A stretch of DNA of 40,012 nt. Source: a bacterium. GTDB taxonomy: Bacteria; Patescibacteriota; Patescibacteriia; JAZDEU01. The DNA is taken from assembly GCA_043800435.1 (NCBI GenBank), contig JAZDMY010000043.1, positions 1-40,012 of the forward strand, in the 5' to 3' direction. The position numbers were made by a program, and so were the translations under genes. This document shows positions 4,605 through 39,267 of this stretch, one piece after another. The notes beneath the pieces are model-generated. The model saw only the letters and a program-made list of their open reading frames with translations, made no database searches and was not told the DNA's origin. Position 1 is the first letter of the stretch, and each line of letters begins with the position of its first letter.

Positions 4605-4824
4605 GATTATAGTCCATTTATATTTAATTTAAATCTAAACTTTGGTAAATTTAATAACTCAAACCTAAAAACGCAAATGTCAAAATCACAACTCAAATAT
4701 TAAAACTTGCGTAGTTATAAAATTTTAAGCTGTAGTTTTTAATTTTCATATTCACTCTTTTAATTGTTTTAGAAAATTAATAAAGCTTTTTGCTAAATCT
4801 AAAATCTACAATCATAAATCAAAA

Positions 4825-6093: not shown

Positions 6094-9000
6094 ATGTCAA
6101 CTTTATTAGAAAACTTAAATCCGGAGCAAACGCAGGCAGTTGTCCATGAAAACGGACCGCTTTTGATTGTGGCGGGCGCGGGGACTGGGAAGACAACGGT
6201 TATTACGAAACGAATCGCATGGTTAATTGAAAATGGAAAGGCAAATGGAGATGAGATTTTAGCTTTAACATTTACGGATAAGGCGGCAGGGGAGATGGAA
6301 GAGCGGGTGGACTTATTATTGCCATATGGATATGTAGATTTATGGATTTCAACTTTCCATTCTTTTTGCGATAGAATTTTGCGCGATTATGCACTGGACA
6401 TAGGGCTGCCGAATAACTATAAACTGATAAATACGACGGAGCAATGGATGCTTATAAAAAAAAATTTAGGCAGGTTTAATCTAGACTATTATAAGCCGTT
6501 CGGAAATCCCACGAAATTTATTCACGCGCTGGTAAAACATTTTTCTAGATGCAAAGATGAAGGGATATCGCCTGTGGGGTATCTTGCATATGCCGAATCT
6601 CTTCGGCTTAATCAGGATAATGCGGAGAGTGGAGCGGCAATAAGTAAAAAGTCACCCGCCAGAACGACTAACGTCATTCAGTCGGGCTGGAAAGCTAAAA
6701 TGCCTGCTCTGAGTTTACCGAAGGGGAAAAAACTAAAAAATGAGAATGAAAATGAGATTACCGAGCTGGAAATAAAAAAAGTAGAAGAGGTCGCGAATGC
6801 TTATCATATTTATCAGCAAATTTTATTGGAAAACGATGCTTTTGATTTTGGAGATCTTATTAACTATACCTTGAAATTATTCAAAGAACGGCCGAATATT
6901 TTAGCGCATCTGCGCAGCAAATTTAAATATGTTTTAGTGGATGAATTTCAGGATACGAACTGGGCGCAATATGAATTGATAAAGATGCTTGCGGCGCCTA
7001 AGAATAATATAACTTGCGTCGCGGATGACGATCAGTCAATTTATTTATTCCGCGGGAGTTCGGTTAACAATGTATTGCAGTTTGCGAAGGACTATCCGAA
7101 ATGCGAGGAAATTGTCTTAACTGAAAATTACCGTTCAAAACAGGATATTTTAGACCTGTCATATAATTTTATCCAGCAAAATAATCCAAATCGTCTTGAG
7201 TATCATCTTAATCAAGATGATGTTATGCGTGAGCGGGCGAAGGAAAAGGGAATTGAACTTAAGGATTATAAAGCGATAAATAAAAAACTGCATTCAAATA
7301 CAGCAGGAAAAGCAATTGTTGAACATTTGCATTGTGAGACGTTGGAAGATGAGGTGAATGTTGTTATTGCGCAGATTTTGAAAATAAAGGAACAGAAATT
7401 AGAAACCCTCCCGCACGAGCCATTCGGGCAGGTTGGAAATCAGAAATTGGAAGAGCAAGAATTAAGAATTAAGAATCAGGAATTAAGTAAAACGGAAAAA
7501 ATCCCCCTTAATCCATCTTTACAAAAGGGGGAAATAAATTGGTCTGATTTTGCGATACTTGTTCGGGCAAATGACAGCGCTATCCCTTTTATTAACGCTC
7601 TTGAGCGCGCGGGCATTCCGTATCAGTTTTACTCATTTAGAGGTTTATACAATAAGCCGGTAATTTTAGACATAACTTCCTATTTTCGCTTGCTTGATAA
7701 TTATCATGAGGCGGCAGCTTTATACAGGGTGCTTAATATGCCGATATGGAAAATAACGCACAAAGATTTTTCTAAACTTAATTATGAGGCGTTTCGCCGG
7801 GGAAAATCGTTATTCTATATAGTGAAGAATTATTCTCTATTAAATGAACTTGATGAGGAAACTATAAAATCGCTTGAGAAAATCGTATTGCTTATTGAAA
7901 AGCATTCAAAAATGGCGCAAGAAAAAAGTGTGAGCGAGATTATAACCGTATTTCTGAATGATTCGGGATATTTAGAATATCTCGTAAAAAATCAAACATC
8001 CGATAATGTTAAAAATTTAAGATATTTAAATGAATTTTATAAAAAAATAAAAGAGTTTGAAAGCGCCGAGAAAGAACCGCGGCTTAGAAATTTTATAGAA
8101 GAACTTTTAATGGAAGTGGAAGCAGGCGATGAGGGAACATTAAGTTTGGATATTGATGCCGGACCTGACATGGTAAAAATTATGACGATTCACAGCGCGA
8201 AAGGATTAGAATTTCCGTATGTTTTTATCACGAATTTAGTGGATAAAAAATTTCCAACGATTGAAAGGCATGATCCAATTGAAATTCCGGAGGCATTGAT
8301 AAAAGAAATATTGCCTGACGGAGATATCCATCTTCAAGAAGAGCGGCGGCTTTTTTATGTTGCGATGACACGCGCAAAAGAAGGATTATTTTTTACATCC
8401 GCTGAAAATTATGGCGGCGTTAGGAAAAAGAAAATTTCACGTTTTTTGCCGGAGATGTTCCCGAATATTACAGATAGTCAAAAATTAACAGCATCTCCGG
8501 ATTGGCTTCGCGGATTGCGCGCGGATAGTAACGCTGATCAGACTGAGAAATATAGATACGCATCTGAGAAATGCGAAAAAGAATTTGTCTTACCGAAGCA
8601 ATTCAGCTATACGCAATTGGCGGCATTTGAGAAATGTCCATTGCAATATAAATTTGCGCATATTCTACGCATCCCAATAAAAGGAAAAGGGAGTTTCAGT
8701 TTCGGGAAGACAATGCATAGCACATTGCAGAAGTTTTTTGCGTTAATGAATGAGAGGAAGAATAAAAAGCAAATCGGTCTTTTCGGCGAGGCGGAATCTG
8801 ATAATCTTCCGAAATTGGAAGATTTATTAAAAATTTATAATGAATCATGGATTGATGAATGGTATGAAAATGATAAGGAACAGGAGGAAAAAAAGAAAAC
8901 GGGGCGAGAGTCCTTGAAAGAATTTTATAATTTGCATAAGGATAACTGGCCGGAAGTTTTATTTTTAGAAAAAGGATTTAATTTGAAAATTGGTAACTAT

Positions 9001-17590: not shown

Positions 17591-18742
17591 ATGCCTTTGA
17601 GATCTAAAAAAATATTATACGCTGTTTCTATTCTTGCAGGCTCTATAATTGGAGTTGGGATTTTCGGACTTCCTTATATAGCATCAAAAGTCGGATTTTG
17701 GCCGATATTTTTTTATTTATGCGGCGGCGCAATAATTGTTTTGGCAGTGCATTTAATATACAGCCAGATTATCATAGCCAGAAATAGAAATGAACGTCTG
17801 CCAGGACAGGTTAATGATGTCTTTGGGAAAAAATGGGGGACATTGGTATTTATTAATTTTCTCTTAGGATTATTCGCTTCCCAATTAGTTTATATTATTG
17901 TCGGCGGGAAATTCTTATATGGACTTGTCAATCTTTTTTACCCCGCGTCATTAACCTTATGTTCCCTTATCTTTTTTGTTTTTGGCTCTTTTTTAATTTA
18001 TAAAGATATTGAATATATAGCCCAAGCGGAATTTTTAATGCTTATATTCTTAATTTTAATCGTCTTTGTGATATTTTTTTTAAGCATACCTAAAATTAAT
18101 ATTGCAAATTTTGCGCGATATGATTTAAAAAATATATTCCTGCCTTATGGCATAGTGATATTTTCTTTTTGGGGGACATCAATACTTCCCGAATTTATAG
18201 AAATGCTTGCAGGCAAAAAAAGAAAAAAAAATCAGGATATAAATAAAGAAGCGACACGGGCAAATATTTACGCTATTTTAATAAGTTTGTTTACTTATCT
18301 TTTTTTTGTTATAGCGGTATTAGGGGTGAGCGGCGCAATGACATCCATGGAAGCATTTGAGGGATTAAAGCCGTTTTTTTCGCAAAAGATAATGTATGCC
18401 GCTTATTTGTTCGGTTTTTTATGCGTTTTTACATCTTTCTTGGCGTCTGGCTTAACTATAAAAAAATGTTTTATTTTTGATTATAAATTAAGCAATAAAT
18501 TATCTTTCATTTTATCAACATCAATCCCTATTTTTTTATTTTTTTTAAATTTTCAAAATTTTATAAGCATTATAAATTTTATAGGCAATTTCACTTTCGG
18601 CATTGCAGGAATTTCCATCTTCGCATTGTATTTAAAATTAAAAAAAACAAAAAAAATAAAAAATTATCTTTTTTCAAATTATACTGTTTACGCTATGATG
18701 ATTTTATTTTTATCAGGAATCATTTTATGCTTTAAAAAATAG
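17591..18742 (+). CDS. amino-acid permease (APC superfamily, aromatic amino-acid/Mtr-TnaB-like)
   Basis: 383 aa and about 11 hydrophobic segments. The N-terminal SILAGSIIGVGIFGLPY motif is typical of this transporter family. Confidence 0.65.
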   Translation: MPLRSKKILYAVSILAGSIIGVGIFGLPYIASKVGFWPIFFYLCGGAIIVLAVHLIYSQIIIARNRNERLPGQVNDVFGKKWGTLVFINFLLGLFASQLVYIIVGGKFLYGLVNLFYPASLTLCSLIFFVFGSFLIYKDIEYIAQAEFLMLIFLILIVFVIFFLSIPKINIANFARYDLKNIFLPYGIVIFSFWGTSILPEFIEMLAGKKRKKNQDINKEATRANIYAILISLFTYLFFVIAVLGVSGAMTSMEAFEGLKPFFSQKIMYAAYLFGFLCVFTSFLASGLTIKKCFIFDYKLSNKLSFILSTSIPIFLFFLNFQNFISIINFIGNFTFGIAGISIFALYLKLKKTKKIKNYLFSNYTVYAMMILFLSGIILCFKK

Positions 18743-18764: not shown

Positions 18765-18834
18765 CCCTGCGGCAGAGACCGCAGGGCGGCGTCAGGGCTG
18801 CAGGGTAGGAAACCCCGTGGCAGAGACCACGGGG
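18765..18834. repeat. twin hairpins with identical CAGAGA loops and compensatory stem changes
   Basis: CCCTGCGG-CAGAGA-CCGCAGGG lies at 18765-18786 and CCCCGTGG-CAGAGA-CCACGGGG at 18813-18834. Both are perfect 8-bp stems. Confidence 0.7.
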
Positions 18835-18978
18835 CGTAAAAATCTGTTAAAACTGGACTATTGATTTTTTTAGAATAGATGCTATAATAATTTTTAAGTT
18901 TTGTAAAATATAAAATAATCCCCAAAAGCATTAAATATGTTTTTGGCCGCAATCCCCAGCCAAAGATGGACTTAAAAA

Positions 18979-20431
18979 ATGAGGCAAGAATTTTGCCGAA
19001 AAATTAAGTTTAAAATAAGCGGGGGCTTTTTTATTTGCCTTTTTTTTCTGCAGAAAAAAATTTTAAAAATATTTTCTTCGTCCGCGCCTAAAAATTTACA
19101 GCGCAGATTTATAATTTTCTTTATCTTATTCTCATTGCTCGTGATTTTATTCGGAAAACTTTTTTTTGATATGGAATCGCCGAATATCATCTTATATTTT
19201 TACGGCATTTCGGTCTCTTTCGTGCTTTTGATAACTTTTTATTTCGCCTTTTTTAAGTATAGCGATCCTTATTTAGCGGCCGCCGCGATTAATCCTGAAG
19301 GAAAAAATAATTATTTGGTAAGTTGCATGGTCGCGGTTAAGGATGAGGAAAAAATCATAGAGCAATGCATCCTTTCTTTTTTAAAACAAACTTATAAAAA
19401 TAAAGAAATAATTTTTGTCAATGACGCGAGTTGCGATAATACGGAAAAAATATTAGATGAGTACGCGAAGAAAAAATTAATTTCCGTAATTCATCTTAAA
19501 AAAAATATCGGGAAAAAACGGGCGCTTGGGAAAGCGATGCTTATGGCAAAAGGGGAAATATTCGTTTTTTCCGACAGCGATTCAATACTTGCGCCTGATG
19601 CGATTTTTAAAATAGTTAAAATTTTTAAAGCATTTCCAAATATCGGCGCGGTTAGCGGACATTGCCGAGCATTAAACGGCAATAAAAATTTTTTGACGAA
19701 AATTCAGGATTCGTGGTACGAAGGGCAATTTTCCGTTCGCAAGGCCTTTGAAAGTTTTTTTGGCGCCGTGAGCTGCGTTTCCGGTCCTTTGGCTGTTTTT
19801 CGAAAAGAAGCGATTTTTAATTATATACCTGCTTGGGAAAATGATTCTTTCCTCGGTCAGGAATTTAAATTTGCGACCGATCGGACTTTAACCGGCTTTG
19901 TGCTCGGCAGCAATGCTATAGGTAAGAAATTGAAAAAAAAAGTATTCAGATTCTTTGTTTGTTAGATCAATTGATTACCCTGAAAAGGATTGGGATATCG
20001 TTTATACGAAATCCGCAAAAGTATGGACGCAAGTCCCAGATACTGTTGGAAAAATGTTCAAGCAGCAAGTGAGATGGAAAAAAAGTTTTATAAGAAATAT
20101 GTTTTTTACCGGAAAATTCTATTGGCAAAAACCGTTTTTGCCCGCTTTTTTTTATTATTTGCACCTGCTTTTCGTAATAATAGGACCAGTTATCGCTTTT
20201 AGGCATTTAGTCTATATACCGCTTAAAGGCGATATATATTCCGCCTTTTTATACTTGGCCGGCATTGTTTTTATAGGATTTTTATTCGGCTTGGCTTATA
20301 GATATGAAAATAATGATTCCCAAAATTGGATTTATCGTCCGCTAATGAGTATATTATCAACTTTAGTTTTGTCGTGGCTAATTTTTTATTCAGCCCTTAC
20401 AATTAAAAAAATGACATGGTCAAGAGGATAA
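18979..20431 (+). pseudogene. processive family-2 glycosyltransferase (chitin/hyaluronan/NodC-type synthase) interrupted by a frameshift in an A9 tract
   Basis: VNDASCDNT, FSDSDS and TDRTLT are in the 18979-19965 frame. IVYTKSAKVWTQVP and QQVRWKKS, plus the C-terminal TM segments, are in the +1 frame (19955-20431). The switch is at A9 19933-19941. Removing one A gives a continuous ...LKKKYSDSLFVRSIDYPEKDW... Confidence 0.75.
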
Positions 20432-23400
20432 AAAAAATTGAATATGCGATTTTTCTCGGCGGAATAATTATTTTTTTAATTATTGCGTATCATTATTTTT
20501 ATTTTTTTTTAAAAAATATATCCGTGAGTCAAGAAAAACAGATAGAAAAAAAAAATAAAACATGGTTTTTGGCAGTGCGCGGATGATGAGATATCCATCG
20601 ATGTTTCGGGCGGCAATATATGCAGGAAAAAAGCAGATAATTCGTACTCAATATGGGAAAAAATTTATGATACATATCCGAAATTTGCAGACGGAAAAGA
20701 AATTATATACAACTTTATTGACAAGGGAGATATACAAATAGCTGACAGATACCTTAATGATTGGCATGATGTTGAGCGTTTTGTTCCGATTCAAATAAAG
20801 CCGATTACATGGGAAGAAAATTATTATGATGAAAAGTACTGGCGGTTTGTATTTTACAGCTTGCGTTCGCTAAGGCATCTTTTATTCGCCGGCGGAAAAA
20901 TTAAGAATAGTGACTATGATAATAAATTTAAAGAAATCGTTGAAAGTTTTATAAATAACGGCATGGATAAAAAATACGCATGGGATGATTATCATGCCGT
21001 GGCTTTTAGAACTATGGTTCTCGTTGATGCTTGGTGGAAATTGCGAGAAAGAAATGCCCTTTCTCTTGATTTAAGCAATAAGATTTTAGAAACTTTGAAA
21101 GTTCATGGCGACTTTATGCTTGACCGAAAGCATTATGAATCTGGACGAAATCACGGACTTAATGAAATTGCCTCTTTGCTTTTGCTTTCAACAAGTTTTC
21201 CCGATATTGAAGGGGCAAAAGATTGGCATGCTGCCGCGACGAAAAGATTGGAAGAAAGCGCGGCCATATTAATTGACGATGATGGAAGTTTAGTAGAAAA
21301 TTCGTCTTATTATCATTTTTATGTTTTGGAGAAATATTGGGAAATATACGATTATATGCAGCGGTATTATATCCCTGCGGGCGATTTTTTTAAAGAAAGG
21401 CTTAATAAAATGATATTATACAGCACATTTATTCTTCAACCGAATTTAGATGTGCCGCTGCTTGGGGCATCAATTGAAAAAAAAAATAAAATTAGCGGAT
21501 GAATTTAAGGAAATAGCAGAAGCCAGTCCCCAATTTCTTTATGTCCTCTCGCAAGGTAAACAAGGCGAGGCGCCAATCCAACTGAATAAATATTATCCTA
21601 TTACAGGGGAAACTATCATCCGTTCAGGATGGGGCAATAAAGATAATTATGAAAATCAAACCCAGCTTATTTTTGATGTCGGTCCTTATAGAACCGAACA
21701 TAGCGATTTAGATGCGCTTAACTTTATCCTTTATAGCAACGGCTTAAATATGATAACCGATTCAGGGCTTTATACTTATGAAGAGGGGTTCTACAAATCA
21801 TATTTTCACGGCTCAAGAGCGCATAATACAGTTGTAGTTGACGGTATGGACCAAAAATTAGGCACAGCAAGCGCGGGAAATTTTTTTGAAGGCGAAGGGT
21901 ATGTTTACCAATCCGGGCAGCATAATCTTTATAGCGGAGTAAGCCATCAAAGAGGAATTTTACTTATCGGGCATGATGTCGTGATTATTATAGATCGTCT
22001 TACTTCCGAAGATGAACATAAATATGAACAACTTTTCCATTTTTCTCCCGAGTTAGATTTATCTTTTGACGATTTAAATATTACCGGTGTCGGTTCAGGC
22101 AACGGTCGTGAAATTAGAATTTATCAGTTGGTTAAAGATGATATAAAGATTAATTCGGCATTCGGACAGGCATCTCCTCCTGACGGTTTATGTTCGTTTG
22201 AATATGAAAAAGCAGTGCCTTGTTATGCCGTTTCATATGAAAAACACGGAAAAACGGCCAATTATATCACAATTCTTGAAATAGGACGGCATGATAATAG
22301 TTTTTTCGCGAACGTAGAGAATAATATAGTAAATATCCGAAAAAATAATATGGATATTTCAGCCGCAATAAATTTTACGCCGAGTTTTGAAAAAGAAATA
22401 ATTGTTAAAAATAATAGCATGCCGTATCCGCCAATAAAAAATTTCTCGGATTTATTGGTTAAAAAAAACATTGATGATTCTTCGCGAGACAAGGATTTAG
22501 AGATTGCTTCTATTGATGGCTCGGCATCTTCAGTTATAAAAAATATTGCTTTGGATCTTTCCGATAAAAATATTTTTTTTCGGATTAGAGTTGAGGGCAT
22601 AACAGAGACAAATAACCTTGAACTTTCTTTTTTTAACGGAGACGGAAAATATGTCACAAATAATTTAAAAAATTCATATCGGTCGGAGGATGACGGCGAA
22701 TGGTTAGATGTAAGTATTGGTAAAAGCAAGGAAAGGAATAAGGGAGGATGGCGAGAATGCGGGAAGGGAGATTTTGATTGGTCAAAAATCGAAAAACTAA
22801 AATTTACGATAAAAGCGCAGAAAGGACAAAATCCTTTATTTTATGTCAGCGATTTTAAAACCGTGCAAGAACAGGACGAAGCGGCTTTAATATTTATTTT
22901 TGATGATGCTCATTATTCTGTTTCGTATGCTGCCGAAATTATGAATAAGTACGGCTTAAAAGGGAATACGGCGGTTATCGGCAAATATGTAGATCAATTT
23001 AGAAATTATTTATCTTCAATTGAATTGAAGGAACTGCAAAATGATTACGGATGGAATATGATAAATCATTCATTGATGCATAAAAATGCGCTTACCGAGT
23101 ATTACGAAAATAATAATTTATTAGGACTTGAGGATGATATTTTAAGCGGCGCAAAGGTTTTAATTGACAATAAATTAAATTCAGCTCCGAATTGGTATAT
23201 TTATCCGAATGGAGCGACAAATGCTGAAATAAAAAATATTGTGGGAAAATATTATAAATTTGCCAGAGTTACAGCGGAACAGCCGGAGATTTTTCCTTTT
23301 GGAGATCCCTTATCGGTTAAGAATTTTTCCGTAAAGGATACGACTCCTGCGGAAGATGTGATTAAAGCGATTTCTGACGCTAAAAAATATAAAACTTCGC

Positions 23401-23717
23401 TGTTTTTAACTTTTCATAGGATAAAAAAATTTCCTGATGACAAGATAGGGTATGATATGGGAAATTTTGAGGCCATTGTTAAGAATGCCGCCGAAAGCGA
23501 TATTAAAGTAAAAACGCTTAGCGAATTTGATAGAGATAACGGGATATTAATAAATGAGATGCTTATAAAAGATGCAGTACCTGAGCAATTAGCTTTTGAT
23601 GTTAAAATAAATACAGGCAGTAAAGAATTAAAAAAAATTATTATAGCCATAGCGCTAATTTTAATAACATCAACAATATTTTTCGTAAACAGGCATACTT
23701 TAGGAGTAAGACGCTAA
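20416..23717 (+). pseudogene. membrane-anchored heparinase II/III-like lyase fused to a NodB-type polysaccharide deacetylase; two frameshifts in A10 tracts
   Basis: ATG 20416 opens a signal-anchor ORF (MVKRIKKIEYAIFLGGIIIFLIIAYHYF...). It continues in the +1 frame at A10 20546-20555 and again at A10 21477-21486. Motifs: EHSDLDALNFILYSNG...TDSG, RAHNTVVVDG, deacetylase IFIFDDAHYS and NHSLMH, and a C-terminal TM. Confidence 0.7.
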
Positions 23718-27130: not shown

Positions 27131-27613
27131 ATGTTAAAAATTGACCTACATTTGCACACCGTGGCCAGCGGTCATGCCTACAATACGATTTTAGAATATA
27201 TCAATCATGCTAAAAAATTAAAAATGAAAATCATCGGCATTAGCGATCATGGACCTGGGAGCGGGGAACTAAGCGAGATTTATTTCAAGTGTCTGAGAAG
27301 AATCCCCCGTTTTGTAGATAAGGTGATGATTTTAAGAGGAATTGAGGCCAACATTATAAATGAGAAAGGAGATATTGATATTTCAGATAAGGTGATCAAG
27401 CGCTTGGATTATGTGATGGCTAATTTTCATGAGGAAACGCCATATAATAATTTAGGAATTGAAAAAAATACAGCTGCTCTAATAAAAACCATTAAGTCGG
27501 GAAAAATAAAAATTATTTCTCATCCTTTTTATAATAAAGCGGCTCCTGTTGATATGAGACCAGTAAGCGAAGAAGCATGCAAGAAGGATGTCCTTTTAGA
27601 AATAACCGCCTAA
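27131..27613 (+). CDS. PHP-domain phosphoesterase (YcdX-like), C-terminally truncated
   Basis: DLHLHTVASGHA, IGISDHGP, GIEANI, ANFHE and ISHP motifs are present. The ORF stops at ...LLEITA, before the final metal-ligand motif (..DAH) that I expect in this family. Repeat elements follow directly. Confidence 0.65.
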   Translation: MLKIDLHLHTVASGHAYNTILEYINHAKKLKMKIIGISDHGPGSGELSEIYFKCLRRIPRFVDKVMILRGIEANIINEKGDIDISDKVIKRLDYVMANFHEETPYNNLGIEKNTAALIKTIKSGKIKIISHPFYNKAAPVDMRPVSEEACKKDVLLEITA

Positions 27614-27639
27614 TTAAAGTCATAGCATTAAATTAATCC

Positions 27640-27940
27640 TTCGGCACATAGCGCAACGTGCTATGGCAGCAAGGTGTCATCCCGCAATCCCGAAGGGATA
27701 TGCGGGATCCAGGATTAACCAATCAGAATAAGCACAAGTCGTAAAATTAAACTTTAAAATTTCTATTTTAAAATTATCGAAATTTCACATTTCTGCCTCT
27801 CACTCATGGATTCCGCATAGCGCTTTGCGCTTGCGGAATGACACAAAATATTGAAATTCCTGTACGTTAAATTAAGTTGCGCACATAGCTCAGCGAGTCG
27901 CCCGAGTTTACCCCCTTTGCAAAAGGGGGAGACGCTCTGT
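27640..27940. repeat. cluster of GC-rich nested-hairpin repeats, modules A ... C-A-B
   Basis: TTAATCCT (27643-27650) is mirrored by AGGATTAA (27711-27718). Nested hairpins: ATCCCGCA...TGCGGGAT and ATTCCGCA-TAGCGCTTTGCGCT-TGCGGAAT. Modules shared with 2979-3110 are listed in that feature. Confidence 0.7.
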
Positions 27941-27980
27941 TTGTCCAAAATATTTAAATTCACTATAAGTAAAATCACTT

Positions 27981-29222
27981 ATGAATCTCAAAGAATCCGC
28001 AAAACTTGCTTTTGATTCTTTACTGGCGAATAAATTTCGCAGTTTTTTGACTATGCTCGGAATTGTTATCGGCGTTGGCTCAATTATAGTTATTATTTCA
28101 GTCGGCGCCGGCGCGCAAAGTTTAATTATAAACCAGATAAAAAGCGTCGGCTCAAATTTGGTGGGTATTTTACCCGGGTCAAGCGAAGAAGAAGGCCCTC
28201 CCGCTTCCGTTATGGGAATCGTCATAACTACTCTTAAATATGAAGACGCAAAGGCGATCTTGAAAAAAAATGATGTGCCGCACGCAGTGGCGGTTGAGGC
28301 AAACGTGCAGGGAATAGGCACGGCAACTTGCGGCAATCAAAGTTTTGATGCCACTTTCATAGGCACTACCGCCGACTATGTAAATGTTGAAGATGCGGAA
28401 ATAGAGCAGGGGAGATTTTTTACCGAACAGGAAGAACACGATTTATCAAGAGTAATAGTTTTGGGAAGCGGCGCAAAAGATGAGCTCTTTGGAAATACTG
28501 ATCCTATAAATGAGAAAGTGAAATTAAAAAAAGAGACATTCCGTGTAATCGGAATGCTCAAGGAAAGAGGATCTGCCGGATTTATCAACCAGGACGATTA
28601 TGTTTTTTTGCCTGTATATACCGCTCAAAAATTATTATTAGGGATTGACCATGTTAGTTTTATTCGCGTTAAGGTTGATGATGCCGAAAATATTGACAGC
28701 ACGAGAGAAGATTTAGAAGTCCTATTGCGCGAAAGGCATAACATTGAAAAAGATGAGCCGGTGGATTTTACCATTAGCAGCCAGGCGCAGGCATTAGAGG
28801 CGCTTACCACTATAACCGACGCCTTAAAATTTTTCCTAGCCGCCATTGCCGCGTTGTCTTTAGTAGTGGGAGGAATAGGCATTATGAATATAATGCTTAT
28901 ATCTGTTAGCGAAAGAACCCGCGAAATCGGACTTAGAAAAGCAATCGGGGCAAAATATAACCATATAATGAAGCAGTTTTTACTTGAGACCGTTATAATT
29001 TCCATACTTTCCGGTCTTATCGGCATTATTATCGGCGCCGTTATTTCCACATTAATTGCCGTTGTAGCGAGATATTTGGACTATGATTGGGATTTAGTTA
29101 TTTCCGTCTTTTCTATTGTTATAGCTGTAGGAGTATCAGGCGCGGTGGGACTCGTTTTCGGTATTTATCCCGCCCGCAAGGCCGCAAAACTTGATCCTAT
29201 TGAGGCGTTGAGATATGAGTAA
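27981..29222 (+). CDS. ABC transporter permease (MacB/FtsX family)
   Basis: N-terminal TM (FRSFLTMLGIVIGVGSIIVIISVG), a large periplasmic domain, and the C-terminal FtsX 3-TM bundle with ERTREIGLRKAIGA and YPARKAAKLDPIEALRYE. Confidence 0.85.
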   Translation: MNLKESAKLAFDSLLANKFRSFLTMLGIVIGVGSIIVIISVGAGAQSLIINQIKSVGSNLVGILPGSSEEEGPPASVMGIVITTLKYEDAKAILKKNDVPHAVAVEANVQGIGTATCGNQSFDATFIGTTADYVNVEDAEIEQGRFFTEQEEHDLSRVIVLGSGAKDELFGNTDPINEKVKLKKETFRVIGMLKERGSAGFINQDDYVFLPVYTAQKLLLGIDHVSFIRVKVDDAENIDSTREDLEVLLRERHNIEKDEPVDFTISSQAQALEALTTITDALKFFLAAIAALSLVVGGIGIMNIMLISVSERTREIGLRKAIGAKYNHIMKQFLLETVIISILSGLIGIIIGAVISTLIAVVARYLDYDWDLVISVFSIVIAVGVSGAVGLVFGIYPARKAAKLDPIEALRYE

Positions 29223-29738: not shown

Positions 29739-30926
29739 TTATAAATTTTTATATTCCATCGCTTTTTCAATGCCATCCCACCATCCATCAGAATTTGTAT
29801 CTTTATTTTTCGGATCAGTGGGGATGCAATCTGAAGTATAAGCATAAATCCCTTCGCATTTTTCTTCCTCATTGGAAATCCCATCGTGGTCAAGATCGGA
29901 GTCAGAACTAGACGAAGTATAAATTTTTAATAGTTTCCATTGGTCATTATTTTTTACAATATAAATTTTCGTATTTCCGCTTTCCATATTAGAGAATATG
30001 ATGCCTTGATTTTTATCCGCATAAATATCAGAATTATTATTTGTTATTTTATTTAAACTCTCTTTGCCTGAACCCATATTAAATATTTCCTGATTGCATT
30101 CTTCAATGCTTATATTAGGGAAAAGGGAAGCACATTCTTCCGCCGATAGATAAGATATTTCCGAAGAGTTATATACATATTTTTTTAGGTTATCCAAAGT
30201 AGTCCCATTTTTATTAATAATACCTTTATATTCGTCAAGGAATTCCCATATTAGTGTAGAATAATTATTGTTTATATCATATTCATTATGTAAAATTGTC
30301 GTTGAAGCAGGTATCTCTGTAAGATTTTTATTCGTTACGCCTAATCCTAATTTTCGCATCAAATTAAACGCGTCTTCAGGTCTGCCTAAAAAGTATCTTT
30401 TTGTGTCATCTGGGTTAATATACCATGCTTCCCCGTGGTTTTCTACTTGTAGTAATATTTTTCCAGCTTGAGTTTTTGCAAAATTTTTATCTATTTTAAT
30501 TGCGCCATTTCCATTCGGATTATAACTGTTTAATACTTCGGTTTTATCATCATATCCGTCATTATCTGTATCAGGATTATTTTTATCAGTACCTAAAGAA
30601 TCTTCAACCATATTAGAAAGCCCATCCTTATCAGAATCATTACCGCTCAAATTTTCAGAAGCTATTTGAATTTTATTAAGATCTGAATTACAAACTCCCG
30701 TGCTCAACTTTATCATTAGATTAAATGCGTCAGTCGGACTTCCTAAATAATAACGTTTATTATCTTTTGGGTTCACATACCAAGCTTCGCCATGACTTTC
30801 AACTTGCAGAATAATTTTGCCTTTTAATGCATTATCTATAGCGGCAAAAGACGTTCCTATTTTTATAAAACCGAATGTAATTAAAACTAAACATATGAAA
30901 CTAAGAAAAAGAATTTTTTTTTTCAT
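29739..30926 (-). CDS. secreted protein with an internally duplicated ~55-aa domain and Asp-rich Ca-binding-type repeats
   Basis: Signal peptide MKKKILFLSFICLVLITFGF. Duplicated domain: GKIILQVESHGEAWYVNPKDNKRYYLGSPTDAFNLMIKL and GKILLQVENHGEAWYINPDDTKRYFLGRPEDAFNLMRKL. Asp-rich repeats: DSDKDGLSN...DTDNDGYDD and DSDLDHDGISN...DTNSDGWWD. Confidence 0.65.
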   Translation of the reverse strand: MKKKILFLSFICLVLITFGFIKIGTSFAAIDNALKGKIILQVESHGEAWYVNPKDNKRYYLGSPTDAFNLMIKLSTGVCNSDLNKIQIASENLSGNDSDKDGLSNMVEDSLGTDKNNPDTDNDGYDDKTEVLNSYNPNGNGAIKIDKNFAKTQAGKILLQVENHGEAWYINPDDTKRYFLGRPEDAFNLMRKLGLGVTNKNLTEIPASTTILHNEYDINNNYSTLIWEFLDEYKGIINKNGTTLDNLKKYVYNSSEISYLSAEECASLFPNISIEECNQEIFNMGSGKESLNKITNNNSDIYADKNQGIIFSNMESGNTKIYIVKNNDQWKLLKIYTSSSSDSDLDHDGISNEEEKCEGIYAYTSDCIPTDPKNKDTNSDGWWDGIEKAMEYKNL

Positions 30927-30977: not shown

Positions 30978-32427
30978 AGTATTCTCTAATCATAAGATGA
31001 TACCATAGTGGTAAGTGCTATTTTTTATAGATTTATGGTGTTTATATTCTCTCGGAATAGAAATTTTTTAAAATTAATTATTTTTGAGAAAATTTTTTAA
31101 ATAATATTGATTTTGCTTTTTGCATTTCCTTTGCAAATTCATTATCACTTTTTTCATTTGCTATCTCATCCATTTTTTCAAAACTAAAATTTTCTTTTAT
31201 ATATTTCTTTGCATCCGGTAATGATTTTAATTTCTCATAAGGCGTAACCCATTGATCATATTTTTTTCTAATTTTTCCTTTAGCGTCAATTTTATTGTCT
31301 GCATACCCGCAGGGTGATATACTAAATAAATATTTAAATACTCCTTATTGAATTTATTTATCTCTTTTGCAAACCTCCCATCGATATAATTCCTGCCGAA
31401 AATTTTTCTTATGATGCTTCCGTTTTTAGACTCCACTAATGCATTGTCATTTGAATGTCTTGATCGCGATTTTGTTAATTCAATATGAATTTTATTTAGC
31501 AACTGGGCGACCACCCTGTTGATGAACTCGCTCCCATTATCTGCATGAAATTCATAAATTGTAAAGGGAAATAATTCTAAGAGTTCTTCTATGACAGGTT
31601 TTAAAAATTGTTCCGTTATTTTTTCTACCGTGCCTATCATTTCATATTGCGTTATCTCATCCACTATATTTATGTGATAAACGCCCTTTTTGCCGTTAAA
31701 ATCGCCCTGATGGACGGTATCAACCCGCAAATACCCTGGCTTGCCATTCGGCTCAGGTTTTCTTCTTATACCGATATTTACCGGCGTGGCTTTTGTCCTT
31801 TTAAAAAATTTTGCTTCGCTGGTATTATATTGATTATTATTATTTCTGATATTGTAAATATGAGCCACTGATATATTTGAAATATTTCCGTAATTGATTT
31901 TTTTATACTTATTGTATTCTCTTTCTAAAATTTGTTTAGTCGCTTCTCCGCTTAAGCAGTCGTGCAGCGTATCCGTTTCAATCAGTAAAGATATGTCCGA
32001 TGGAAAATATTTTTTTGTAAACTTGTTTCTCTTTCTTGTTGGATTGTAAAATAATTTTCCCTTGCGCCATTTCTTGCGGCATCTTTTTAAATGGGATTTA
32101 GAATATCCTGTAAAAAATTTCAAATACATAAGGACAACATGTTTATCAGTTCTATCCAAATGATTATACTTCGTCCAATAAAGAGTGGTTTTGATAAAAT
32201 CATACTTATCCTTAGTAGTTTGTATTTCCAATTTCACACCCTCATCCATCGTGCCCTTTAAAAAATTTTTAATTTGGCTTATACTGCTTAATGGTAAGCG
32301 TTTCATAATGATCCTCATAAATCTATTATGAAAGCAATTACCATTTTTAGCAAGATGGGCCTTTTGGGGCTCATTTTGCGTTAGACTCAATATATCCTCA
32401 TGGTATCATCTTGCATTAGAGAAGACT
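30978..32427 (-). mobile_element. insertion sequence (1450 bp) with imperfect ~30-bp terminal inverted repeats and a 5-bp target-site duplication
   Basis: The left end is AGTATTCTCTAATCATAAGATGATACCAT (30978-31006). The reverse complement of the right end (32427 down to 32400) is AGTCTTCTCTAATGCAAGATGATACCAT. The element is flanked by TATTG at 30973-30977 and 32428-32432. Confidence 0.8.
31078..32390 (-). pseudogene. DDE (rve/integrase-core) transposase, frameshifted near the C-terminus
   Basis: DD(35)E triad: VDTVHQGD, FHADNGSEF and LVESKNG. The main frame ends at 31227. The conserved tail PCGYADNKIDAKGKIRKKYDQWVTPYEKLKSLP...LFKKFSQK is in the -1 frame (31313 down to 31078). The switch is at CACCCTGCGGG (about 31306-31316). 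The IS family is not assigned. Confidence 0.8.
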
Positions 32428-32563: not shown

Positions 32564-32920
32564 ATGACCATAAGGCAAACAATAACAACCGCCTATAATT
32601 CACTGACAAAGCAAAAAATGCGAAGTTTTTTGACTATTTTAGCTGTGGCTGTCGGAATTGGCATAGTCATTATCGTTTTGTCCTCAGGCGCGGGAATGAA
32701 AGCATTTGTGACAAACCAATTGGACTCATTCGGCTCGGATTTAATGGAAATAGAAGTAAAAGTTCCGAGCACGAAACAGGCATCTGTCTCAAACGCCGCG
32801 GGGCAGGCGATGGGTATAACTATTACGACTTTAAAAGTTGATGATATGGATGCAATACTGAAATTACCAAATATCAAAAATGGTTATTCAATGTTAATGG
32901 GACAGGATTTGGCAAGTTAG
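32564..32920 (+). pseudogene. 5' fragment (117 codons) of a MacB/FtsX-type permease gene, paralogous to 38020-39267
   Basis: By my hand alignment, 100 of 117 residues are identical to the N-terminus of the 38020-39267 product. Nucleotide similarity fades near 32930. The fragment lacks the rest of the periplasmic domain and all FtsX TM helices. Confidence 0.8.
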
Positions 32921-38019: not shown

Positions 38020-39267
38020 ATGACTTTAGCGCAAACCATCACAACCTCATATAATTCATTAACGAAGCAAAAAATGAGAAGTTTTTTGACTATTTTAGCT
38101 GTAGCTGTAGGAATAGGCATTGTTATTATTGTTCTGTCTTCGGGCGCGGGGATGGAAAAATTTATTTCAAATCAATTAGATTCTTTTGGCACGGATTTAA
38201 TTGAAGTGGAAGTAAAAGTTCCGAGCACGAAACAGGCATCTGTCGCGAACGCTGCCGGCCAGGCAATGGGCATAACAATTACTACATTAAAGTCTGATGA
38301 TATGGATGCCGTGATGAAATTGCCTAATATTAAAAATGGATATTCAATGGTCATGGGGCAGGATTTAGTAAATTATCAAAATGAGAGCAAAAAAGTTATG
38401 CTTATGGGCGTGAGCCCGCAGGCATCGATCGTTGATAAGGCGACAAAGCTTGCCGAAGGAGATTTTATTACTGAAGAAGATGACAAAGGACTCGCGCAGG
38501 CAGCGGTGTTAGGTTTTAAAGTTAAAGAGAAACTTTTTGGCGATGATGATGCAATCGGGAAATATATAAAAATAAAAAGAAAAAATTTTCGTGTGAGCGG
38601 TGTATTAGAAAAAAGAGGGGCGATGATGGGAATGGATTTTGATAATTTAATTTATGTTCCATTAAAAACATTGCAAAAAAAAATATTGGGCATTGAACAC
38701 GTAAGCGCCATATTTATGCAAGTTGCCGATATGGATTTAGTTAATGCGACTAAAGAGGATATAGAAATTTTGCTTAGAGAGAGGCATAATATCAGCGATC
38801 CAACGAAAGACGATTTCGCAGTTATGTCTATGCTTGAGGCAAAGGAAATGATGGATAAAGTTTTCGGCGGAATTACTTTATTGCTTTTGGCGCTTGCGGC
38901 GATTTCTCTTGTTGTCGGCGGCGTGGGAATTATGAATATTATGTATGTAAGCGTTGTGGAACGCACTTATGAAATAGGACTAAGGAAAGCATTAGGTGCT
39001 AAAAATAATGATATTATGAGGCAATTTTTATTTGAGGCGCTGCTTCTTACTTTAACAGGCGGAATAGTCGGAATCTTAGGCGGGCTTTCTCTTACATTTT
39101 TAGTCTCCGTAATCGCTAAAATGAAAAATTTTGACCTGCCTTTTGTAATATCCTTTAATTCATTATTAGTCGGCGTCGGTTTCTCAGGTCTTATGGGGCT
39201 ATTCTTTGGCATTTACCCTGCGAAAAAGGCGGCAACGCTTGATCCGATAGTGGCATTGACTAAATAG
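38020..39267 (+). CDS. ABC transporter permease (MacB/FtsX family), full length
   Basis: Same architecture as 27981-29222: N-terminal TM, periplasmic domain, ERTYEIGLRKALGA, and C-terminal TMs ending YPAKKAATLDPIVALTK. Confidence 0.85.
   Translation: MTLAQTITTSYNSLTKQKMRSFLTILAVAVGIGIVIIVLSSGAGMEKFISNQLDSFGTDLIEVEVKVPSTKQASVANAAGQAMGITITTLKSDDMDAVMKLPNIKNGYSMVMGQDLVNYQNESKKVMLMGVSPQASIVDKATKLAEGDFITEEDDKGLAQAAVLGFKVKEKLFGDDDAIGKYIKIKRKNFRVSGVLEKRGAMMGMDFDNLIYVPLKTLQKKILGIEHVSAIFMQVADMDLVNATKEDIEILLRERHNISDPTKDDFAVMSMLEAKEMMDKVFGGITLLLLALAAISLVVGGVGIMNIMYVSVVERTYEIGLRKALGAKNNDIMRQFLFEALLLTLTGGIVGILGGLSLTFLVSVIAKMKNFDLPFVISFNSLLVGVGFSGLMGLFFGIYPAKKAATLDPIVALTK

Follow-up and report, generated by a model that had tools for sequence, protein, structure and literature searches.

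Three frame breaks in a predicted polysaccharide operon

The 40,012-base contig JAZDMY010000043.1 (G+C content 34.7 %), which was analysed over its whole length and is referred to here as the window, carries two adjacent plus-strand genes predicted to act on a glycosaminoglycan-like polymer, and both are interrupted at long runs of A. The first gene (18979–20431) encodes a processive family 2 glycosyltransferase (GT2) of the hyaluronan/heparosan/chitin-synthase-like type and falls into two pieces, 18979–19965 in frame 1 (328 aa) and 19934–20431 in frame 2. Both pieces were matched by the Pfam families Glycos_transf_2 and Chitin_synth_2, with a further match to Glyco_trans_2_3. When the two pieces are read as one protein, the DSDS (residues 199–202) and QQVRW (residues 362–366) motifs that mark processive GT2 enzymes occupy invariant alignment columns; in the DNA as assembled the QxxRW motif falls beyond the first break. 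The nearest solved structures in PDB were hyaluronan synthases, which matched best, together with heparosan synthase B and chondroitin synthase. The second gene (20416–23717), whose start overlaps the stop of the GT2 gene by 16 nt, is spread over three frames and encodes a membrane-anchored fusion protein of ~1100 aa in which a heparinase-III-like lyase with N and C domains is linked through a middle region to a NodB polysaccharide deacetylase. Its Pfam matches were Hepar_II_III_N, Hepar_II_III_C and Polysacc_deac_1, and its nearest solved structure was heparinase III (E = 4e-41).

Translation in three frames placed each break at a run of nine or ten A residues. Frame 1 of the GT2 gene is open from 18979 to a TAG at 19963–19965 and frame 2 from 19934 to a TAA at 20429–20431; the change of frame takes place at the A9 run at 19933–19941 (site 1), which is one base longer than the conserved L-K-K-K-Y reading allows. 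In the fusion gene, frame 1 runs from the ATG at 20416 to a TGA at 20584, and frame 2 is closed by a TAG (20543–20545) right before an A10 run at 20546–20555 and then stays open to 21500. This second break (site 2) corresponds to codons 44–47, just past the N-terminal membrane anchor. Frame 0 is open from 21450 to 23717, and the change to it from frame 2 lies at the A10 run at 21477–21486 (site 3; codons ~354–357), within the conserved motif PLLGAS-[LI]-[ED]-R-[KR]-I. All three breaks are +1, and deletion of one A from each run gave single open reading frames (ORFs) of 483 aa for the GT2 and 1099 aa for the fusion protein. The runs at sites 2 and 3 sit in exact copies of the 16-mer GAAAAAAAAAATAAAA (20545–20560 and 21476–21491, plus strand), both of which encode E-K-K-I-K when in frame. 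This 16-mer occurs exactly twice in the window, and a double match was found in none of 100 shuffles.

The initial annotation of the window had described a GT2 synthase and a heparinase-like gene that were broken by one surplus A at each of three tracts, with a TAG directly before the second tract and an identical 16-mer around the last two. The Pfam and structure matches agree with these gene identities, and the translations and single-A deletions reproduced the breaks, the TAG and the repeated 16-mer.

With regard to sequence context, T(T/A)G precedes all three broken runs (19924–19944, 20537–20557 and 21468–21488), and AATTG followed by the A run is common to sites 1 and 3, though the reading frame relative to the run differs between them. 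Such a context could be relevant either to context-dependent base-calling error or to slippage propensity. Downstream re-initiation after site 2 is unlikely, as the new frame contains no ATG, GTG or TTG before 20861.

Removal of the surplus base restored conserved sequence at each junction. At site 1 the K-L-K-K-K-Y motif was recovered, and the 483-aa read-through aligned through the junction at KLKKKY with intact homologues of 440–490 aa (60–72 % identity). At site 2 the conserved N-terminus MVK..KKIE and the membrane anchor were joined to I-x-H-G, as aligned with the fusion protein of locus L002, one of the orthologous loci compared below. The restored reading at site 3 was PLLGAS-I-E-K-K-I, where the orthologues have [LI]-[ED]-R-[KR]-I. 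Columns that were invariant among the compared homologues were all kept in every segment of both proteins. Lone deviations at near-invariant columns numbered 0 of 53 in the GT2 and eight of 68 in the fusion protein, the latter all being conservative and within the range found in intact homologues (0–11). This conserved-column comparison of both proteins revealed no inactivating mutation downstream of the three breaks. Plain pseudogenes carrying further downstream lesions had been proposed as an alternative in the initial annotation; the lack of such lesions excludes old pseudogenes, and very young ones remain compatible with the data.

For both read-through proteins, hundreds of intact homologues aligned across more than 90 % of the sequence, most of them from Patescibacteria and some from DPANN archaea and Actinomycetota. 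The closest GT2 homologue was 72 % identical; fusion homologues were intact at 1040–1370 aa, the closest being ~50 % identical. At locus L002 the pair is intact, has the identical 16-nt overlap and is preceded by a UDP-glucose dehydrogenase gene. Given this intact locus and the alignment of homologues throughout both proteins, the ancestral state was two intact, translationally coupled genes for a glycosaminoglycan-like polymer. The pair is also conserved more widely, with the two genes adjacent and often overlapping in L002, L006, L009, L025, L037, L038 and other loci of Patescibacteria, DPANN archaea and Actinomycetota, including Streptomyces, which suggests an uncharacterised glycosaminoglycan-like polymer system. 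To our knowledge, no member of this GT2 and heparinase-III/NodB pair has been characterised.

Lineage-specific runs and an excess of long runs in the window

The comparison of orthologous loci proposed in the initial annotation was made with 80 loci from references with one genome per species (n = 80 for site 1 and n = 39 for site 3), and the runs proved to be specific to this lineage. The A run at site 1 was no longer than A7 in all 80 loci, and it stayed short even where the KKK peptide was encoded at 29–36 % G+C because at least one AAG codon interrupts it. At site 3 the run did not exceed A5 in any of the 39 orthologues, which read E/D-R-K/R-I; judging from these codons, the run in the window would have arisen through AGA to AAA changes.

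Closer relatives were found by searching metagenome runs for the stretch. The matches were fragments of relatives in four metagenomes (X1–X4), all of them spanning site 1 and none reaching sites 2 or 3. The organism itself turned up in none of the runs, and no RNA run was found to contain the stretch. Short contigs from three of these runs, which came from two studies, were ~93–96 % identical at site 1 and were one base shorter, in frame and with G-interrupted lysine codons: X1 and X3 read AAGAAAAAG (TTG AAG AAA AAG TAT) and X2 read AAGAAGAAA (TTG AAG AAG AAA TAT). Among the 12 differences listed for X1, 10 affect the third base of a codon when the frame is repaired, and these occur both before and after the run. 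The G-interrupted, in-frame state of these relatives implies that G-to-A changes made the pure runs and that the extra A (or the miscall) is younger than ~4 % divergence. Scans of genome contigs and metagenome contigs with single proteins, together with exact look-ups of fragments of the window itself, retrieved neither a close relative nor a second assembly; the best protein identities were 72 % (GT2) and ~50 % (fusion protein).

Breaks in the orthologous genes were few. All but two of ~45 fusion genes were single ORFs, and those two were broken elsewhere and not at poly-A: in L014 at a short G run (~8340–8360) and in L017 at a non-repeat site (~7470–7490). The 80 GT2 orthologues were scored as single ORFs in the conservation test, and the GT2 gene of L042 was separately recorded as broken at a G8 run (4675–4682). 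Poly-A breaks were not found to recur in the same operon of other metagenome-assembled genomes (MAGs); the three breaks seen there lay at G runs or in non-repeat sequence.

The lengths of A/T runs in the window were compared with those in 264 kb from AT-rich relatives (30–39 % G+C; a subset of loci L004–L065). The relatives had 324, 99, 5, 1 and 1 runs of 7, 8, 9, 10 and 11 bases, respectively, a 20-fold drop from eight bases to nine. The corresponding numbers in the 40 kb of the window were 59, 29, 5, 3 and 0. Eight runs of at least nine bases were thus present where 1.06 were expected from the relatives, an excess of ~7-fold (P = 2e-5 for all eight; P = 0.005 for the five in-frame runs alone). 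Lysine codons differed in the same direction. In the relatives, the first two codons of KKK motifs were uninterrupted in only six of 62 cases (10 %), whereas codon usage predicts 54 %; the proportion in the window was seven of 16 (P = 0.004), or four of 13 when the broken sites were left out (P = 0.06). The relatives place AAG so that KKK motifs are broken up, and this contig lacks most of that avoidance. With eight coding A/T runs of at least nine bases per 40 kb at 34.7 % G+C, the window has the AT-richness and the density of long runs of the endosymbiont type, and the lineage tolerates slippery runs of a kind that is purged in its relatives, a trait in which it is similar to AT-rich endosymbionts (PMC3017870).

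Five of the eight runs of at least nine bases are in frame, and these sit in conserved domains or in a signal peptide. They are an A9 at 18223–18231, inside a permease domain match; a T10 at 30914–30923, which is an A10 in the sense of its minus-strand gene and lies directly behind the start codon (ATG) of an ORF whose signal peptide begins with MKKK; and an A9 at 6456, an A9 at 38675 and a T9 at 20502. All 29 runs of eight are likewise in frame. The initial annotation had read the runs at 18223–18231 and 30914–30923 as in frame, which the domain match and the signal-peptide ORF confirmed, and had concluded that there was no blanket homopolymer error. That conclusion holds for blanket error, which the in-frame runs of eight and of at least nine bases do not support, and it does not extend to an error class limited to the longest runs. 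The three broken runs (three of eight in the window) comprise two of the three A10 runs and one of the five nine-base runs, and all lie within two adjacent genes. The chance of such clustering under random hits was 0.07 when the eight runs of at least nine bases were considered and 0.03 for the 37 runs of at least eight.

Some further features of the window were recorded. An insertion sequence (IS) element at 30978–32427 encodes an rve-domain transposase in two minus-strand ORFs (31227–32405 and 31078–31344), with a frame change near the C-terminus at a short C/G-rich string and no long homopolymer; either the gene is a genuine pseudogene or its frameshift is programmed. Genomes this small seldom contain IS elements. 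A 118-aa ORF (32564–32920) matches MacB_PCD over the first 68 positions alone and represents the 5' portion of a permease gene similar to those at 38020–39267 and 27981–29222. Within 27131–27980, a PHP-domain ORF ends after 160 aa (profile positions 1–74 of 164) and is followed by 367 nt that have no open frame and contain GC-rich segments; the region resembles a truncated gene that is followed by repeat or RNA-like elements. Between the stop of the permease gene and the start of the GT2 gene there are two GC-rich hairpins, CCCTGCGG-CAGAGAC-CGCAGGG (18765–18788) and CCCCGTGG-CAGAGAC-CACGGGG (18813–18836), whose loops are identical and whose stems differ by compensatory changes. The similar string CCCTGCGGG occurs at the frame break of the transposase near 31340. 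An Rfam scan of the window, hairpins included, matched no family.

Possible origins of the extra bases

Genuine insertions or deletions of any mechanism are probable at the three sites. The single account that we favour, with a probability of about 0.5, is that genuine single-A expansions by replication slippage recently silenced the operon, possibly in a leaky manner. AT-biased substitutions (AAG to AAA and AGA to AAA) would have stripped the G interruptions from lysine- and arginine-rich motifs and so produced pure A8, A9 and A9 runs, each of which would then have gained one A by replication slippage. The synthase would thereby lose its QxxRW motif together with the C-terminal membrane helices, and the lyase/deacetylase fusion would be split into three pieces, so that the polymer module would be off at the DNA level. 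The first hit would have lifted selection on the operon, and the remaining hypermutable runs would have drifted before point mutations accumulated; relaxed selection acting on hypermutable runs would explain why three run frameshifts are present without any other lesion. We infer both the presence of the extra A residues in the DNA of the organism and this order of events from the comparisons above. The off state would in principle be reversible, and RNA-polymerase or ribosome slippage on runs of A9–A10 could make it leaky, probably only slightly; no evolved recoding signal is envisaged.

Gene erosion in AT-rich reduced genomes has been documented to begin with frameshifts at runs of at least nine bases in genes that are otherwise intact (PMC3017870), and the other decay on the contig, in the form of the frame-broken IS transposase, the permease-gene fragment and the truncated PHP gene, was counted as support for recent silencing. 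Several points weigh against it. The absence of any other lesion in 4.7 kb is predicted equally by an artefact; the errors at the three sites share one sign and two of them lie in an identical 16-mer, which a context-dependent base-calling bias would also give; and the probability attached to the clustering is only modest (0.03–0.07), as these two genes contain half of the long runs in any case.

An assembly or base-calling artefact, in which the true runs are A8, A9 and A9, the genes are intact and the sequencing platform or polishing miscounted the longest homopolymers and added one A at three places, is the foremost alternative, a possible one that we nevertheless consider doubtful. It would account for genes that are flawless outside the three runs, for the restriction of the breaks to runs of at least nine bases (two of three A10 runs and one of five nine-base runs), and for the shared sign, the repeated 16-mer and the AATTG context of sites 1 and 3. 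The reference collection that supplied the loci includes long-read MAGs, judged by contig names, and the contig and metagenome scans found no independent assembly or read set of the organism. Against it stand the five other runs of at least nine bases, one of them an A10, and the 29 runs of eight that are all in frame, as well as the concentration of the three hits in one operon. In addition, the orthologous coding sequence of other MAGs (215 kb) contained four runs of nine, all of them unbroken, and the three breaks that were found all lay away from poly-A. Over-calling by one base is the less usual direction of error for homopolymers in long reads, and miscounts of an A10 are rare in a short-read consensus, both of which were counted against an artefact. 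If the extra bases are nevertheless artefactual, the case is a caution for annotation pipelines, as residual errors limited to runs of at least nine bases can mimic phase variation.

It is unlikely that the poly(A) runs together control the glycosaminoglycan-like operon, whether as multi-site contingency switches or as a dimmer set by slippage that gives low, stochastic levels of the synthase and the lyase/deacetylase, with GAAAAAAAAAATAAAA serving as a slippery module. If true, multi-run control of a surface polymer would have no demonstrated precedent in the candidate phyla radiation (CPR). The two forms of control are best considered separately.

Adaptive phase variation would make the runs contingency switches for a surface polymer and its modification, toggled by reversible slipped-strand mispairing, with the assembled population in the OFF state; we regard it as rather improbable. 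Mononucleotide runs within the ORFs do set the frame here, as the frame switches coincide exactly with A9, A10 and A10, and hypermutable runs in otherwise intact surface-polysaccharide genes are the classic class of target (PMC2831843, PMC8355987). The breaks are limited to the polysaccharide operon and site 2 is close to the 5' end of its gene, although sites 1 and 3 are far from theirs. The runs are not maintained in relatives, however: the orthologues have no more than A7 at site 1 and A5 at site 3, and X1–X3 are interrupted and non-slippery at site 1. Two OFF runs in the fusion gene and a third in the synthase gene would require three simultaneous reversions, an unusual layout for working switches. 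Long runs are moreover frequent throughout the contig, so that their presence in the operon needs no selection. A literature search on phase variation in Patescibacteria retrieved nothing specific.

Maintained slippage-dependent expression, in which full-length protein is made from mRNAs that RNA polymerase has shortened by one A or lengthened by two, or through ribosome sliding, is very improbable. It would fit an AT-rich genome in which runs of at least nine bases are as dense as in Blochmannia (eight per 40 kb compared with 153 tracts reported there, PMC3017870), and it would fit the lack of decay downstream of the breaks. Slippage on runs of nine A/T adds up to 6 nucleotides (PMC5009743), so that +2 products would be in frame, and for frameshifted endosymbiont genes the reported proportion of full-length transcripts is ~30 % (PMC3017870). 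The out-of-frame state at site 1 is, however, not kept in the relatives that are ~93–96 % identical, whose fragments span this site only. Restoration here requires −1 or +2, whereas slippage on A/T runs is mostly single-base insertion, with 151 of 157 insertions compared with 16 of 57 deletions occurring in runs, and in Buchnera no reading frame was seen to be restored (PMC5574713). Each mRNA of the fusion gene would have to be rescued twice, independently, and efficient slippage would harm the in-frame A9 and A10 runs of other genes.

A programmed, conserved slippage site of the dnaX or mxiE type, which the initial annotation had raised, was not borne out, the runs being absent from the 80 orthologous loci and the relatives that are ~93–96 % identical at site 1 being in frame there; programmed recoding with a stimulatory context likewise had no support (zero-frame stops lie 8, 11 and 5 codons past the runs and no consistent Shine–Dalgarno-like element could be read upstream). 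Two readings were rejected, namely +1 ribosomal frameshifting of the Euplotes or prfB type (the shift sites have no zero-frame stop and no conservation) and an obligatory organism-wide shift on runs of at least nine bases, which is excluded by the five such runs that are in frame in conserved domains or a signal peptide.

If the extra A residues are real, recent silencing of the operon would provide a snapshot of a streamlined, AT-drifting uncultured bacterium that is losing or toggling a surface-polymer module, in which synonymous drift builds slippery runs that then fire ahead of any other mutation. The case would also bear on the trust that can be placed in MAG gene inventories and on surface variation of episymbiotic CPR cells. 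The run-length cliff and the placement of AAG in the AT-rich relatives are a comparative by-product that may be of more use than the case itself.

Comparison with known systems

The nearest solved relatives of the operon proteins are GT2 enzymes of the hyaluronan/heparosan-synthase type and heparinase III, and the likeness is confined to the catalytic cores. With regard to the breaks, the closest parallel is provided by the poly(A)/poly(T) frameshifts of Buchnera and Blochmannia (Tamas et al., 2008, as cited in PMC3017870). Those genomes share with the window the AT bias, the many intragenic runs of at least nine bases and the single-base insertions and deletions in otherwise intact genes, and the same ambiguity between a first step of erosion and rescue by transcriptional slippage applies to both. 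The present case differs in that it concerns an uncultured, groundwater-type Patescibacteria-like bacterium and not an insect endosymbiont, with three hits in one non-essential operon. Moreover, the nearest relatives do not have the frameshift, in contrast to some of the endosymbiont cases, which are conserved.

The contingency loci of Campylobacter (poly-G in capsule and lipooligosaccharide genes), Neisseria and Helicobacter are alike in having a mononucleotide run inside a glycosyltransferase or polysaccharide-modifying gene, where one base toggles the frame. In the window, by contrast, the runs are poly-A, stem from neutral-looking synonymous or conservative changes, are not conserved and occur in three places, two of them in one gene. 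The A9 of Thermus dnaX and the T9 of Shigella mxiE resemble these runs in their length of 9–10 bases and in a change of frame that slippage can bridge. Those sites are conserved and yield two useful products, whereas the runs found here are missing from the orthologues and zero-frame translation gives truncated enzymes of no evident use. On these comparisons, the operon would be a fresh instance of a known phenomenon, and the sequence data do not support a programmed, conserved recoding site.

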